This document shows positions 6,412 through 11,881 of a stretch of DNA of 48,821 nt, one piece after another; position 1 is the stretch's first letter, and each line of letters starts with the position of its first letter. The notes under the pieces were generated by a model. The model did no database searches, was not told the DNA's origin, and saw nothing but the letters and a program-made list of their open reading frames with translations. The stretch comes from Gemmatimonadales bacterium. GTDB lineage: Bacteria; Gemmatimonadota; Gemmatimonadetes; Gemmatimonadales; GWC2-71-9. Position numbers and translations under genes: made by a program. The DNA lies in the NCBI GenBank assembly GCA_013820855.1, contig JACDHV010000002.1, positions 1 through 48,821 on the forward strand, written 5' to 3'.

Positions 6412-6674
6412 TCGAATTGGTATCCCTCGACTTCCTCGGCCGCCAGCGTCGCCTCGCCGAGCATGGTGAGCAGACGGAGCTGTTCCTCGGCCTGCTCGGC
6501 ACTGATGCGGCTCATGGCGAAGCCGACGTGAATCAGCACCCAGTCGTCCACCGCCAGGCCGTCGGGACGCAGCAGATCGACGTTCACCTTGCGGCGAACG
6601 CCGGTGACGTCGACGACGGCAAAACTCGGCTCGGCCGCGAACTCGACGATGCGGCCCGGGATGGCGAGACACAC
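6408..6674 (-). CDS. hypC: Hydrogenase maturation chaperone HypC
   Basis: 88 aa beginning MCLAIPGRIVEF, the canonical HypC N-terminus, followed by ...DDWVLIHVGFAM. GTG start. Confidence 0.9.
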   Translation of the reverse strand: MCLAIPGRIVEFAAEPSFAVVDVTGVRRKVNVDLLRPDGLAVDDWVLIHVGFAMSRISAEQAEEQLRLLTMLGEATLAAEEVEGYQFE

Positions 6675-6686
6675 GGGCGCGGCCGC

Positions 6687-6788
6687 CTACATGTCCCGCA
6701 TCTTGAGGTAGCGCCGTATTTCGGGATACTGGTGCACCAGCAGCATCCCCACCCCCGCCGCCACCGCGAGCAGCACGATCCGGCCCAT
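6687..6788 (-). CDS. 33-aa single-pass membrane micro-protein, absent from the ORF track
   Basis: Read by hand: ATG at 6788, TAG at 6689-6687. It encodes MGRIVLLAVAAGVGMLLVHQYPEIRRYLKMRDM. A purine-rich GAGAGGCGGTGG sequence lies upstream. It fills the only sizeable gap between the protease gene and hypC, with a hydrophobic helix followed by a basic tail. Confidence 0.45.
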   Translation of the reverse strand: MGRIVLLAVAAGVGMLLVHQYPEIRRYLKMRDM

Positions 6789-6802
6789 GACACCACCGCC
6801 TC

Positions 6803-7645
6803 TCATCTGGCACTCTCGTTTGAGGGTGACGCCGGCCACTCGCCGGCCGTCAGGTCCTGCACCAGCTTCTCGACCAGCCGCACCGCGCCGGCGACCGCGG
6901 TCTGCACCGGCGCGCTCAGCCGAGTGATGATTGCGGTCGGGTCGTGGTCTTCCGGAAACTGCTCCGGCTCGCAGCCGACCACCAGGGTTCGGGGTGGCTC
7001 CCCGCCGAGCCCGCGCACCAGGTGCAGGACGCGCACGGGGTCCATGCCGTGCGTCTCGACCGTTGGCGGCGCCGCATCGTCGAGCTCCGGCTCGAGCACG
7101 AACAGCGTGCCGGGTGCCTCGCCGCGCGGCATGGCATCGATCAGGATTGCGGCGTCGTAACCGTTCTGGAGCGCGTAGGCGAGATCGATGCCACGGATGC
7201 CGAACTCCCGGACCGTTACCCCCGGAGGCCAGCGCCGTTCCACGAGCGCCTGCGCAACCACCACACCGAATCCGTCGTCGCCCAGGAAGACGTTGCCGAT
7301 ACCGGCGACCAGGATCCGCGGCGCGCCGCGGGCCATGTCGTCATCGAGCGGCAGCGGCTCGACCTCGTCGGGCGCGAAGAAGAAGCGATGCGCCGGGAAC
7401 CGGCCTTCGCCGAGATCGCGACCCGGATCGTCGTTCACGGTGACGGCGAGCATCAGCTCGCCGCCGATGTCCTGTTCGATCGTCTCCACACGGGCGGTGC
7501 GGCCGGCGAGCACCATGTCGAAGGCGTCGCGGCCGGACCGCGGCCGGAGCCTCACCATGCTGCCGGTTCGCAGCTCGACACCGGCCACCTCGATGTTGGT
7601 GGGGGCGGGCCGGGCCGCGTCGCTCCAGAAATCCGCGCCGCTCAT
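6803..7645 (-). CDS. Hydrogenase maturation endopeptidase (HyaD/HupD family) with an in-frame ~103-aa N-terminal domain of unknown function
   Basis: The ATG at 7645 overlaps the upstream stop (ATGA). Residues 104-280 carry RILVAGIGNVFLGDDGFG...ILIDA...VETHGMDP, typical of the protease. Residues 1-103 (MSGADFWSDAARPAPTNIEVAGVELRTGSMVRLRPRSG...FFFAPDEVEPLP) have no recognised family. No stop codon separates the two parts, and there is no SD before the internal ATG at 7336. Confidence 0.85.
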   Translation of the reverse strand: MSGADFWSDAARPAPTNIEVAGVELRTGSMVRLRPRSGRDAFDMVLAGRTARVETIEQDIGGELMLAVTVNDDPGRDLGEGRFPAHRFFFAPDEVEPLPLDDDMARGAPRILVAGIGNVFLGDDGFGVVVAQALVERRWPPGVTVREFGIRGIDLAYALQNGYDAAILIDAMPRGEAPGTLFVLEPELDDAAPPTVETHGMDPVRVLHLVRGLGGEPPRTLVVGCEPEQFPEDHDPTAIITRLSAPVQTAVAGAVRLVEKLVQDLTAGEWPASPSNESAR

Positions 7646-8667
7646 TCGGCGCCGACGACGCGCAGCTCGCGCACCGCTCCGTGCAGGCGGGACAGCTCCT
7701 CCGGACCGAGCGCCATGCAGCGGTCGAGGATCTCGCGCGCCCGGGGATCTGAGTCGCGCATCTCGGCGCGCTCCTCGTCGGTGAGCGCGAGGATGTTCAG
7801 GATGAGGAGCTGATCGATCTCGCCGCCGTCGAAGAGGTCGCCGGGGCTCTCGGGGGCGATCCGGGGATAATCTCCGAGAATGATCGGGGCGGACAGCAGC
7901 GTGTGGCGCTCGCCAAGCTCGCCCACGAGCACGGGCCAGGCGCCGATGTTGCGGCACGCGGCGGCGGCGGCGGCGAGCTCCGCGGGCGGGTCGGTGAGCG
8001 ATACGAAGGCGCCGCCATTCGCCTGGACGGTGGCATGAGTCGAGATGAGCGCCCTCCGCTGCGCCGCCTCGCGACTGCCGCCGCTCCACGGCGTCGTGTT
8101 GGCGATTTCGATTCGGAGCCGCCAGAGCCCCGGCTGCACCGCCACCGCGCGGAGCGTGACGGCGCCCTGGATCCCGTCCCACGACCGCACCACGGCGCCG
8201 ACCGGCCGCCCCTCCTCGAGGACCGGCTCCTCGGCGGTCCCGGCGGCGATGTCGAGCGGCACCAGCCGCGGCGTTTCGAGTGCCGCCGGCGCCAGATCGT
8301 CCAGGATGACCTGGCGCTCGACCGCCTCCTCCCAGGCGAGGTGGCGGCGTCCGCCGGCGACCAGCTCGTCCACGTACCGTCGATTTCCATCCGCATCGCA
8401 CGCAACCCGTCGGTCGACGACCTGAAGGAACCGCACCCGGACCCGCAGCCGTGCCGCAGCCGGGTCGGCAGCCTCGAGGAGGCACTCGGTGACGATCCGC
8501 CAGGCGTCATCACCGCCGCGGGCGTCGCTCCACGCCTGCGGGTACACGCCACCGAAGGTCCAGCGCTGGCGGTTCTTCAGCGCGGAACGGCGGTACGGCC
8601 AGAGCAGGTAGCCCTCGTAGAGCACCGCCTGCGCGATGCGCTCGAGCGCGGCATCGGAGCCGCTCAT
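7642..8667 (-). CDS. 341-aa conserved-looking protein of unknown function in the hydrogenase operon
   Basis: ATG-initiated ORF that starts 1 nt after the preceding stop, and its own stop overlaps the next start (ATGA). Globular composition; no motif recognised. Confidence 0.8.
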   Translation of the reverse strand: MSGSDAALERIAQAVLYEGYLLWPYRRSALKNRQRWTFGGVYPQAWSDARGGDDAWRIVTECLLEAADPAAARLRVRVRFLQVVDRRVACDADGNRRYVDELVAGGRRHLAWEEAVERQVILDDLAPAALETPRLVPLDIAAGTAEEPVLEEGRPVGAVVRSWDGIQGAVTLRAVAVQPGLWRLRIEIANTTPWSGGSREAAQRRALISTHATVQANGGAFVSLTDPPAELAAAAAACRNIGAWPVLVGELGERHTLLSAPIILGDYPRIAPESPGDLFDGGEIDQLLILNILALTDEERAEMRDSDPRAREILDRCMALGPEELSRLHGAVRELRVVGAE

Positions 8668-9552: not shown

Positions 9553-10085
9553 CGCCCGTTGCCGAGCTGCACCAGCATCGGGGCGGCGGGCGGCGCGGGT
9601 GCGGAAGCGCCGTTCTCCGCCTCGATGCCCGTGAGCTCCGGCGCGGCCCGGAGCACCGCCTCCTCGACCGAGCTGTGCAGCGTAACGGCCGACGACGGGC
9701 ACCCCTTGCAGCTGCCGGTGAGCCGCACGCGCGCGATGCCGCCGTCTACGGCGAGCAGCTCGACATCGCCGCCGTGCGAGCGGATGTAGGGCCGCACCTC
9801 GTCGAGCGCCGCCCCGACCCGCGCCTCCACCGCATCGGGATGCAGCTCGTGCAGCATCAGCAGATGACCCACGAGCGGATCGGCGGTGAAGCGGTCCAGC
9901 AGGCCGGGGCCGCCGACATCCGAGGCGGCAGCCACGATGCGGGCGAGCGCCGCGCCGTAGAGCTCGACGATTCCCTGCACCGCCGCGAGCGCGGCGTCGC
10001 GGGCGGCGGGATCCTCGATCAGTTCGACCTGCGCGAGCAGCGCCTCGACCTCGGCGGCCCGCGCATCGAGCGACGGGTCGCTCAC
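9549..10085 (-). CDS. NifU C-terminal-domain (Nfu-like) Fe-S scaffold-type protein
   Basis: GTG at 10085 overlaps the hhyL stop (GTGA). The sequence is MSDPSLDARAAEVEALL... and the C-terminal half carries LDEVRPYIRSHGGDVELLAVDGGIARVRLTGSCKGCPSSAVTL, the NifU/Nfu signature with CxxC. Confidence 0.85.
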   Translation of the reverse strand: MSDPSLDARAAEVEALLAQVELIEDPAARDAALAAVQGIVELYGAALARIVAAASDVGGPGLLDRFTADPLVGHLLMLHELHPDAVEARVGAALDEVRPYIRSHGGDVELLAVDGGIARVRLTGSCKGCPSSAVTLHSSVEEAVLRAAPELTGIEAENGASAPAPPAAPMLVQLGNGR

Positions 10086-11881
10086 CCGCCCAGCCCGTAC
10101 TGTGACGAATGCACCTGCTCGAGCACCTTGCCGTTGCCGAGATACATGTGCACGCCGCACGGGAGGCAGGGATCGAAGCTGCGCACGGCGCGCATGATGT
10201 CGATGCCCTTGAAGTCGTCGGGGCCGTTCTCCTCGAAGATCGGCATGCCCTGCACCGCATCCTCGTACGGCCCGGGAGTCCCGAGACTGTCGCGGGGGCT
10301 GCCGTTCCAGGGAGTCGGCGGGTAGGGGTGATAGTTGGCGATCTTGCCGTCGCGGATCACCATGTGATGCGAGAGCACCCCCCGCACCGCCTCGTGGAAG
10401 CCGCAGCCGATGGCGTTCTCCGGCACCTTGAAATCGGTGAACGTCTTGGTCCTTCCGGCCCGCACCTCGTCCATGGCCTTCTCGAGGAAGAAGATGGCCT
10501 GCGCGGCGGCGTACGCGATGAAGTACGCGCGCGCCCGGTCCCGCTCGATGGTGTTGGACCACTGCGGGATCTTCCACTCGAGCGTGGCCGCGGGATGCTT
10601 GAGGCTCTTCGGCAGATTGATCTGCACGCTGTGCCCGGTGGCCTTCACGTAGCCGGTGTCGACGGTCCCGGCGAGCGCGGTGGCCCAGAAGCGCGCGAGC
10701 GGACCGCCGCCGGTGTCAAGCGCGAGGTGATCACCGCTCTGGGGATGGAACCAGCGCGGGCTCATGACCCAACTGTACTTGTCGTCGAAGTTCCGCTTCT
10801 GGGGGCGCGGAATCGTCGTCTGGTTCCACGGATGCCGCCGGTCCACCGGGTTCCCGAGCGGATCGGTGGACACGAACATCTCATCGTTCTCCCAGTCGTC
10901 GTAGAACGAGCTGCCGAGCAGGATGCGGATGCCGAGATTTATGTCCACCAGATCGGTGGTGATGAGCTTGCCGTCCACGACGATGCCCGGGGTGACGTAC
11001 ATCGCGTTGCCCCACTCGTTCATCGTGCGGTACTGGTAATCGCAGACGTCCGGGTTCTGGAACGCGCCCCAGCACCCGAGCAGGATGCGCCGCTGCCCCA
11101 CCCGCTCATATCCCGGCAACGCCTCGTACCAGAAATCGAAGATGTCGTCGTTCATCGCGACCGCTTCCTTGACGAAGTCGAGGATGGAGACGAGGCGCGA
11201 CAGGTAGTCGGTGAAGACCTGGGTGGTGGCGATGGTGCCGACGCCGCCGGGATAGACGGTGGACGGATGGACGTGGCGCCCTTCCATGAGGCAGAACATT
11301 TCGCGGGTGACGCGGCTGACCCTCAGCGCCTCCCGGTACACCGCCCCGGTGAAGGGGTTGAAGGCCCGCATGATGTCGCCGATGGTGCGGTATCCGTGGA
11401 TTTCGGAGTGCGGCGCGGGGGTGCGGTTCGCCTTGTCGAGGACGCCCGGATTGGTCTGCTTGACCATCTCCTCGCACCAGTCCACGAAGACCAGGTTGTC
11501 CTGGAAGATGGTGTGGTCGAACATGTACTCGGCGGCCTCGCCGAGGTTCACGATCCACTCCGCCAGGTTGGGCGGCTGGATGCCGTACGCCATCTGCTGG
11601 GCGTAGGTGGAGCAGACGGTGTGGTTATCGCCGCAGATGCCGCAGATCCGGCTGGTGATGAAGCCGGCGTCGCGGGGGTCCTTCCCCTTCATGAAGACGC
11701 TGTAGCCGCGGAAGATGGAGGAAGTGCTGTGGCACTCCGCGACCTCCCGGTTCTCAAAATCGATCTTGGTGTAGATGCCGAGATTCCCGACGATCCGGGT
11801 GATCGGATCCCAGTGCATCTCGACCAGCTTGCCGCGCCCCGCCGTGGAGGGGGCACCGGCGGCTACGTCTCGGGTGGCCAT
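10082..11881 (-). CDS. hhyL: [NiFe]-hydrogenase large subunit, group 1h (formerly group 5) type
   Basis: Internal ATG at 11881, preceded by a GAGGAG SD. The L1 motif is TSRICGICGDNH and the L2 motif is SFDPCLPCGVH, followed by a 21-aa C-terminal extension (MYLGNGKVLEQVHSSQYGLGG) of the kind removed by the maturation protease. 599 aa. Confidence 0.95.
   Translation of the reverse strand: MATRDVAAGAPSTAGRGKLVEMHWDPITRIVGNLGIYTKIDFENREVAECHSTSSIFRGYSVFMKGKDPRDAGFITSRICGICGDNHTVCSTYAQQMAYGIQPPNLAEWIVNLGEAAEYMFDHTIFQDNLVFVDWCEEMVKQTNPGVLDKANRTPAPHSEIHGYRTIGDIMRAFNPFTGAVYREALRVSRVTREMFCLMEGRHVHPSTVYPGGVGTIATTQVFTDYLSRLVSILDFVKEAVAMNDDIFDFWYEALPGYERVGQRRILLGCWGAFQNPDVCDYQYRTMNEWGNAMYVTPGIVVDGKLITTDLVDINLGIRILLGSSFYDDWENDEMFVSTDPLGNPVDRRHPWNQTTIPRPQKRNFDDKYSWVMSPRWFHPQSGDHLALDTGGGPLARFWATALAGTVDTGYVKATGHSVQINLPKSLKHPAATLEWKIPQWSNTIERDRARAYFIAYAAAQAIFFLEKAMDEVRAGRTKTFTDFKVPENAIGCGFHEAVRGVLSHHMVIRDGKIANYHPYPPTPWNGSPRDSLGTPGPYEDAVQGMPIFEENGPDDFKGIDIMRAVRSFDPCLPCGVHMYLGNGKVLEQVHSSQYGLGG

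Follow-up and report, generated by a model that had tools for sequence, protein, structure and literature searches.

A predicted [NiFe]-hydrogenase maturation endopeptidase fused to an N-terminal domain in a putative group 1h hydrogenase cluster of a Gemmatimonadales bacterium

The gene at 6803-7645 and its start of translation

The stretch analysed here, referred to as the window, comprises 48,821 nucleotides of contig JACDHV010000002.1 from a Gemmatimonadales bacterium (GenBank assembly GCA_013820855.1). On its minus strand, in a cluster assigned to the group 1h [NiFe]-hydrogenases, lies a gene that would encode a maturation endopeptidase with an additional N-terminal domain, which we call module D. 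The features of this gene are as follows (pLDDT, predicted local distance difference test).

6803-7645, minus strand: gene for module D, linker and endopeptidase, 280 amino acids plus stop, beginning MSGADFWSD (from translation)
7642-7645, minus strand: ATGA stop/start overlap of gene X with the D-protease gene, a site of putative translational coupling
7352-7645, minus strand: module D, residues 1-98 (from alignments, model strands and Foldseek)
7319-7351, minus strand: inter-domain linker, residues 99-109, PLDDDMARGAP (pLDDT 65), which holds Met104 (7334-7336)
6860-7318, minus strand: predicted HybD-type [NiFe]-hydrogenase maturation endopeptidase core, residues 110-262 (from TIGR00072, PF01750, an alignment with HybD and the fold)
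7274-7276, 7136-7138 and 7049-7051, minus strand: predicted metal triad D124, D170 and H199, respectively

The gene is present in single copy in the window's own 3.49-Mb genome. Judged from its sequence and from the sequences of its relatives, it is a true and old gene fusion that is translated from ATG 7645 as one polypeptide of 280 amino acids.

A preliminary description of this DNA had the reading frame running without a stop up to an ATG within an ATGA overlap, and translation and coordinates confirmed this: the ATG at 7643-7645 shares the ATGA with the TGA of the upstream gene, which encodes 341 amino acids and is called X here (7642-8667). Such a stop/start overlap suggests coupled translation. 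No in-frame ATG, GTG or TTG was found within 60 codons upstream of 7645, and from there down to codon 20 ATG 7645 is the sole in-frame start codon; no other start in this region would yield a protein with the near-invariant W7 of module D. The Shine-Dalgarno duplex energy was not good for ATG 7645 (-1.7 kcal/mol) and was +0.3 kcal/mol for the internal ATG 7336, the codon of Met104. Thus, the internal Met indeed lacks a Shine-Dalgarno sequence, as had been noted before, but taken alone this is weak evidence because ATG 7645 is also without a good one.

Upstream of ATG 7645, the frame of the protease remains open for 280 more codons, up to position 8485, where it overlies gene X in another frame. 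The great length of this open frame (6803-8485, minus strand) results from the guanine-plus-cytosine (GC) content of 70%, and a program that calls the longest open reading frame (ORF) would report a false protein of 560 amino acids starting at GTG 8485.

The preliminary description had allowed that the N-terminal segment might lack homologues or a coding signature, but it has both. The first 105 residues alone retrieved 1739 proteins at E<=1e-3. GC contents at the three codon positions were 0.75/0.49/0.89 in residues 1-103 and 0.78/0.49/0.85 in the remainder of the gene with the core, values that are usual for a genome with 70% GC. Since module D and the core agree in codon-position GC and 15 residues of D are invariant across phyla, D is coding sequence and not an open frame that arose by chance.

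If translation started, or also started, at ATG 7336, the product would be an ordinary protease of 177 amino acids and the fused form would be minor or absent. Met104 does lie only 6 residues ahead of the core and thus near the usual start of stand-alone proteases (that of Cupriavidus necator starts 3 residues ahead), and the poor Shine-Dalgarno energy of ATG 7645 favors this alternative as well. However, there is no stop between D and the core, so D can be made only in the fused protein, and yet D is under strong purifying selection. In addition to the missing Shine-Dalgarno sequence at ATG 7336, the junction alignment revealed that Met104 is not conserved in the fused relatives: 16 of 41 fused loci have no ATG, GTG or TTG at all between D and the core, and an ATG is found in only 3 of the 41. 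The best Shine-Dalgarno energy ahead of the protease core in these 41 loci had a median of -4.6 kcal/mol, whereas proteases encoded by separate genes had a start codon in 30 of 30 loci, with median energies of -8.8 and -8.6 kcal/mol. The start signals of the protease have thus decayed in the fused lineage, and therefore, the fused protein is the predicted product. On the grounds of the Shine-Dalgarno energy, the conservation of the linker Met and the decayed start signals, we rejected the internal start, which we regard as very unlikely, and the earlier proposal that the protease is made with an extra N-terminal module is supported by the same data together with the constraint on D. A false joining of two genes by an assembly error or frameshift has to be considered in a metagenome-assembled genome (MAG) that is a draft of 363 contigs. 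But 45 independent loci have this junction in the same frame, among them loci from isolates of Nonomuraea, Actinomadura and Microtetraspora, and it was also found in genomes of the same genus. We therefore rejected an artefact, for which we see next to no probability.

The two domains of the predicted protein

Among 106 aligned sequences of module D, both fused and free, 15 residues are invariant (P35, D40, D43, G48, A51, D73, P74, G75, D77, L78, G79, H86, R87, F88 and F89) and about 20 further positions are conserved at >=90%, W7 being one of them. The invariant residues are located in a loop-helix with the sequence DDPGRDLG and in a strand with the sequence HRFFF, with P35, D40 and D43 preceding them. 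The signature reads DDPGRDLG...PxHRFFFxPxEVEP in the window and DDPG[RK]DLG ... HRFF[FY]xPxE[VI]EP in general, and all invariant columns are present in the window's protein. Module D does not contain Cys. Among the best 120 of the 1739 proteins retrieved with the first 105 residues, nearly all have 257-324 amino acids and contain PF01750, i.e., they are fused, and those with named sources are from Solirubrobacterales and Gaiellaceae. With residues 1-103 as the query, 936 proteins were found, mostly "hypothetical proteins" of 96-110 amino acids.

Searches with Pfam and NCBIfam profiles gave no match to module D or to gene X, even at E<=1, and a PDB sequence search with the D profile yielded no relative but only a chance match of 29 residues to a PDZ-like segment in a zinc protease (E 0.47). 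The structure of D was compared at the level of models. An AlphaFold2 model of the full 280-amino-acid protein had a mean pLDDT of 90.1 and a predicted template modelling (TM) score of 0.72; a model of D alone (pLDDT 80) had strands at residues 17-20, 23-26, 30-33, 50-58, 64-70, 88-90 and 95-97 and two short helices. In Foldseek searches, D alone matched only SH3-like small barrels, and these only weakly, with one match at E<=1e-3: the BAH domain of EBS (E 5.5e-4). It was followed by PetP of the cytochrome b6f complex (E 3.6e-3; root mean square deviation, 2.4 Å over 76 columns) and by the C-terminal domain of the nitrile hydratase beta subunit, PsaE and ribosomal eS4. Thus, D models as an SH3-like small barrel. 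The small-barrel fold that it would share with PetP (2N5U; 7R0W chain V), PsaE, the nitrile hydratase beta C-terminal domain and BAH is reflected in TM scores of 0.5 on the query and 0.66-0.75 on the PetP targets (0.75 on 7R0W chain V), but there is no detectable sequence relationship, with identities of 12-21% and E values mostly of 0.004-0.08, and, unlike the known barrels, D has an invariant DDPGRDLG...HRFFF insert of its own. The likeness is to be read at the level of the predicted fold and does not imply common descent or common function. Several of these small proteins and domains, PetP and PsaE among them, dock onto large redox or metal enzymes. The segment from residue 71 to 90 reached a pLDDT of 88-90 in the model of the full protein versus 72-77 in the model of D alone, which weakly hints that this segment may pack on the protease.

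The protease core had been placed at about residue 110, and this agrees with our alignments, in which it begins at R110 (RILVAGIGNVFLGDDGFG). It scored 110.6 bits with TIGR00072 (cutoff, 47.45; residues 112-261) and 34.7 bits with PF01750 (cutoff, 23; residues 130-259). D124, D170 and H199 align with E16, D62 and H93 of HybD from Escherichia coli (1cfz), and the first ligand is Asp, as in the family consensus GDDGFG, rather than the Glu of HybD. We take Glu16, Asp62 and His93 of HybD to be its metal ligands, as in the 1CFZ structure. The best PDB sequence relatives of the core are HybD-type peptidases as well, and the Foldseek output for the full-length model, which was dominated by the protease domain, contained 1cfz_A (E 1.9e-11; TM score, 0.71 on the target) as well as 5zby, 5ttx and 2e85. 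Since the family profiles are passed, the triad is kept and the model matches the fold of HybD, the protein is predicted to be a catalytically competent endopeptidase. The cutoffs of the HyaD/HybD subfamilies, however, were missed: the scores were 61.4 versus 151.8 for TIGR00140 (hupD), 39.6 versus 190 for NF007777 and 32.9 versus 261 for NF007616. By these profile scores, the protease is a member of the superfamily (TIGR00072/PF01750, peptidase A31) in a separate group 1h clade outside the HyaD/HybD subfamilies.

The window's protein thus resembles the HybD/HyaD/HupD/HoxM-type endopeptidases of family A31 in its profiles, its modelled fold and its three predicted metal ligands, and, as in those systems, its gene is located in the operon of a cognate large subunit that bears a tail after DPCxxCxxH. 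The known members, however, are single-domain proteins of about 150-195 amino acids, whereas the window's protein has an N-terminal addition of 109 residues. The linker at the end of this addition is variable: in the fused relatives, it is rich in Pro, Ala, Asp and Gly, about 8-18 residues long, and differs in length and sequence.

Arrangement of X, D and the protease in group 1h clusters

The preliminary description had suggested a fusion of genes that are separate elsewhere and a comparison of the domain architecture in other group 1h clusters. We therefore compared 89 loci, namely the best 80 of 525 relatives (one genome per species), the eight loci L001-L005 and L087-L089, and the window's own locus (L006). 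Since the best 80 were ranked by their likeness to the window's D, the fused form is over-counted in this set. Both separate and fused forms were found, and the architectures assigned were distributed as follows.

X separate, D fused to the protease, as in the window: 45 of 89 loci
X, D and protease as three separate genes: 24 of 89 loci
X fused to D, protease separate: 14 of 89 loci
X, D and protease fused in one gene: 1 of 89 loci (L009)

Each of the 89 loci contained exactly one D, and wherever the flank permits, X was upstream of D and the protease was downstream. The gap between X and D never exceeded 189 nucleotides, whereas that between D and the protease was up to 775 nucleotides. A YceI-like or DUF1440 membrane-protein gene is located between D and the protease in L001 (8291-8863) and L005 (8455-9060), and gaps of about 660 nucleotides were found at this position in L064 and L082; a gene inserted between X and D was not found in any of the 89 loci. 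In L003 and L004, D overlaps the start of the protease gene by 4 nucleotides. A tblastn match to the window's large subunit, HhyL, was present in the flank of 79 of the 89 loci, with a best piece that was mostly 68-91% identical and in four cases 49-58% identical. Most of the ten loci without a match are truncated on the upstream side of D; in L030, the upstream flank is complete and yet gave no match, and L006 is the short locus of the window itself.

A less biased sample came from 1.84 billion representatives of clusters at 50% identity, among which a profile search gave 1509 proteins; the best 150 of these were classified. Here, 66 had X fused to D, 59 were D alone (some of them fragments), 21 (about 14%) had D fused to the protease and 4 had all three parts, two of which were confirmed to end in PF01750. 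The triple fusions have 526-587 amino acids (L009, from a Solirubrobacteraceae MAG, and P0276, P0289, P0317 and P0332) and fall into several distinct 50%-identity clusters.

As a free gene for 96-110 amino acids, module D directly precedes the protease gene in a number of group 1h clusters from Acidobacteriota and other phyla. Such stand-alone D proteins (for example, P0153, P0215 and P0178) match the window's D over the full length with 52-60% identity, have the same invariant residues and are encoded at the same site. Unlike in the window, their genes are separate from the protease gene, with a 4-nucleotide overlap or with a YceI or DUF1440 gene in between, and they have a stop of their own 0-12 residues past EVEP. 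In other clusters, D is the C-terminal part (about 90 residues) of an X-type protein, as in pHG1 of C. necator H16 (476 amino acids), in a plasmid of Mycobacterium intracellulare (448 amino acids) and in a plasmid of Streptomyces fungicidicus (469 amino acids). The "actinobacterial hydrogenase" cluster on pHG1 of C. necator (Ralstonia eutropha) has the same gene order as the window. Its protein WP_011153991.1, which by its position we take to be PHG069, consists of X (47% identity) and D at residues 382-469 (53% identity to the window's D; E 3e-27), and its protease, WP_011153992.1, is a plain protein of 183 amino acids that is 51% identical to the window's core. A protease PHG070 is listed in a tree of PMC2670836 under a GenBank accession, and WP_011153992.1 is located where PHG070 would be. 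In C. necator, then, D is the C-terminal domain of X, whereas in the window a stop/start boundary separates X from D, which continues into the protease.

The free D genes are what the preliminary description had expected, but its account was incomplete, since D is also found as the C terminus of X or between X and the protease in one protein. The arrangement in the window is a moved gene boundary and not simply the capture of a free factor by the protease. The fused form is common and not special to the window's genome, and D is one fixed component of group 1h clusters, located between X, with about 340 amino acids, and the protease. What is new here is that the piece joined to either neighbor or to both is one discrete module of about 98 amino acids, predicted to be SH3-like, that occurs once per cluster.

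A maximum-likelihood tree was calculated from concatenated X, D and protease sequences (77 rows, 600 columns); read without a root, it does not distinguish gains from losses. The tree groups the architectures strongly, yet it needs at least 7 state changes. The fusion of D to the protease arose at least two times: once in a clade of 35 rows (Shimodaira-Hasegawa-like approximate likelihood ratio test, 98) that comprises Actinomycetota, Gemmatimonadota and Binatia and includes the window, and once in 8 rows of Acidobacteriota (mostly Terriglobia), which are nested among split acidobacterial rows. X fused to D is found at three or more sites of the tree, namely in Mycobacterium/Streptomyces, in Burkholderiaceae and in Chloroflexota/Rubrobacteraceae. 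The stop/start boundaries around D have thus moved repeatedly, giving X-D with a separate protease, three separate genes, X with a D-protease fusion (the window) and the triple fusion.

Four of the 24 other genomes of the window's genus (G010, G012, G019 and G023) contain the fused gene over most or all of its length, and G023 has two copies. Since the gene is so patchily distributed, the group 1h island is accessory in this genus. The in-frame junction of D and protease was read in both copies of G023, and their designation as a form split by one codon ("1 TGA inside") was rejected, because the junction is in frame and the domains are fused. Several of the other genomes (G001-G024) contain only proteases of other hydrogenase types.

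The genes around the fusion are those typical of group 1h clusters: a NifU-like gene, DUF5947, X, protease and DUF6893. The further features of the window are as follows.

7642-8667, minus strand: gene X, 341 amino acids, conserved hypothetical protein, without D here; 47% identical to residues 4-349 of WP_011153991.1 from C. necator
10082-11881, minus strand: HhyL, putative group 1h large subunit; 74% identical over 598 residues to the large subunit of C. necator H16 pHG1
10085-10147, minus strand: C-terminal extension of HhyL, 21 residues after His578 (...DPCLPCGVH/MYLGNGKVLEQVHSSQYGLGG), presumed substrate of the protease
6687-6788, minus strand: DUF6893 membrane peptide, 33 amino acids (PF21833, E 2.2e-10), the usual follower of the protease gene, as in L001 and L002

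By gene content and sequence identity, the cluster is assigned to the group 1h [NiFe]-hydrogenases (formerly group 5, "actinobacterial-type"). The cleavage of HhyL after His578 is presumed from the known processing of [NiFe]-hydrogenase large subunits. A PDB search with X gave no hit. In contigs with a free D, the gene order was small subunit, large subunit, NifU-like, (small ORF), DUF5947, DUF6084, X (unnamed, 260-350 amino acids), D (about 100 amino acids), protease and DUF6893.

Three observations on annotation were made along the way. An alternative GTG-started ORF of 70 amino acids at 6584-6796 had no Pfam match; the ATG-started reading of 33 codons matches DUF6893 from end to end. Between the DUF5947-like gene and X, the segment 8669-8893 (minus strand) contains only a short ORF for a low-complexity peptide rich in N, Q, K, G and P (MKSKQSNNLTVGKPQ...), and the equivalent position in other group 1h clusters is occupied by a DUF6084 gene for about 210-230 amino acids. 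A search of the window's whole genome with PF19562 (DUF6084) gave no match, but the control genomes were silent as well, so that the absence of this gene is unproven. Finally, RefSeq calls the small subunit of group 1h hydrogenases "hydrogenase expression protein HypE" in C. necator H16 (L087, 1080-2135), M. intracellulare (L088, 1-980) and S. fungicidicus (L089, 36-1124). This looks like a propagated misannotation, the real hypE being annotated further downstream, and it has also been remarked upon in PMC13332983.

A possible role of module D in the maturation of HhyL

Since D is found fused to the protease, to X or to both (a Rosetta-stone signal), X and D are putatively assigned to the step of the endopeptidase, the final proteolysis in large-subunit maturation. 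Because D is fused in both directions, we consider it reasonably probable that the protease works jointly with X and D, all three in equal amounts and likeliest as a complex, and that D, by analogy with the small barrels that dock onto large enzymes, is a docking module in late HhyL maturation. D would then link X to the protease on an HhyL precursor already loaded with nickel. The protease would remove the 21-residue tail after His578, upon which the active site would close and HhyL would pair with the small subunit, HhyS. In the window's protein, D would be tethered about 10 residues from the first strand of the protease, which leads into the metal-binding loop, and the covalent link would keep the two in a constant ratio and at a higher local concentration. 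In this way, the fusion may physically couple an accessory factor to the processing of HhyL, as the preliminary description had proposed.

Several observations weigh against this scheme. Extra genes (YceI, DUF1440) can intervene between D and the protease, whereas X and D are never interrupted in this way; functionally, D may therefore be part of X and be linked less tightly to the protease. The fold matches of D are weak and SH3-like barrels are very common, so that docking is proposed by analogy. A metal or ligand site could be formed just as well by the invariant charged residues D40, D43, D73, D77 and H86. Also, the fused form is over-counted in the ranked loci and makes up only about 14% of the less biased set.

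The main alternative is a neutral drift of gene boundaries. If D belonged to X and acted at a step unrelated to proteolysis, small indels in coupled operons could shift stops and starts and join D to its next neighbor without any cooperation with the protease. The absence of insertions between X and D would be in line with this, as would the diversity of the X-D architecture, which is the largest of all (66 of the 150 representatives versus 21 of 150 for D-protease), and junctions that are 4-nucleotide overlaps can be converted by a single indel. However, a large clade that comprises Actinomycetota, Gemmatimonadota and Binatia has retained the D-protease fusion, which arose again in Acidobacteriota (mostly Terriglobia), and triple fusions are present in at least four separate 50%-identity clusters and in L009. 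Moreover, an attached domain that hinders the protease would be counter-selected, and a stable fusion to a non-partner would be unusual. We therefore regard drift as rather unlikely. Lower still is the probability that we give to D being a small metal- or ligand-binding domain, for example for the hand-off or sensing of nickel or iron, instead of a docking module. The invariant acids and H86, together with the near-invariant D59, D72, E54, E94 and E96, could provide ligands, the conservation exceeds what a plain tether usually needs, and the partner protease is of a kind that recognizes nickel in its substrate, as known for HybD, whose triad is kept here. But a domain without Cys and with only one invariant His would be poor for nickel, searches of Pfam, NCBIfam, PDB and Foldseek gave no similarity to known metal-binding families, and the conserved R32, R76, R82 and R87 beside the acids would suit a salt-bridged protein interface equally well.

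Going beyond a docking role for D, a more specific proposal, which we advance only tentatively and consider doubtful, is that X, D and the endopeptidase form a late-maturation machine dedicated to group 1h enzymes. D would grip the HhyL precursor at its 21-residue tail or at a 1h-specific surface and pass it between the protease and X, which would be a chaperone or checkpoint protein of a new type.

Group 1h hydrogenases account for much of the uptake of atmospheric H2 by soils, and the conserved hypothetical genes of their clusters have been termed function unknown ever since the clusters were first described. They still were in papers of 2018 and 2026 (PMC5900883, PMC13332983). A literature search found no paper that deals with module D, PHG069 or an endopeptidase extended by an N-terminal domain, and the fused proteins are already in public databases as "hydrogenase maturation protease." We are thus dealing with a known protease family that has an undescribed accessory domain, with an architecture that is common and a function that we infer. 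For annotation, this means that module D deserves a family of its own and that the label "hydrogenase maturation protease" on proteins of about 270 amino acids hides a second domain. For the heterologous production of oxygen-insensitive hydrogenases, the accessory genes X and D may have to be supplied. If the proposal of a dedicated machine is true, this machine would be the missing reason why oxygen-insensitive, high-affinity hydrogenases can be assembled in air, and the unassigned "conserved hypothetical" genes of the hhy/hof clusters would become directly testable.

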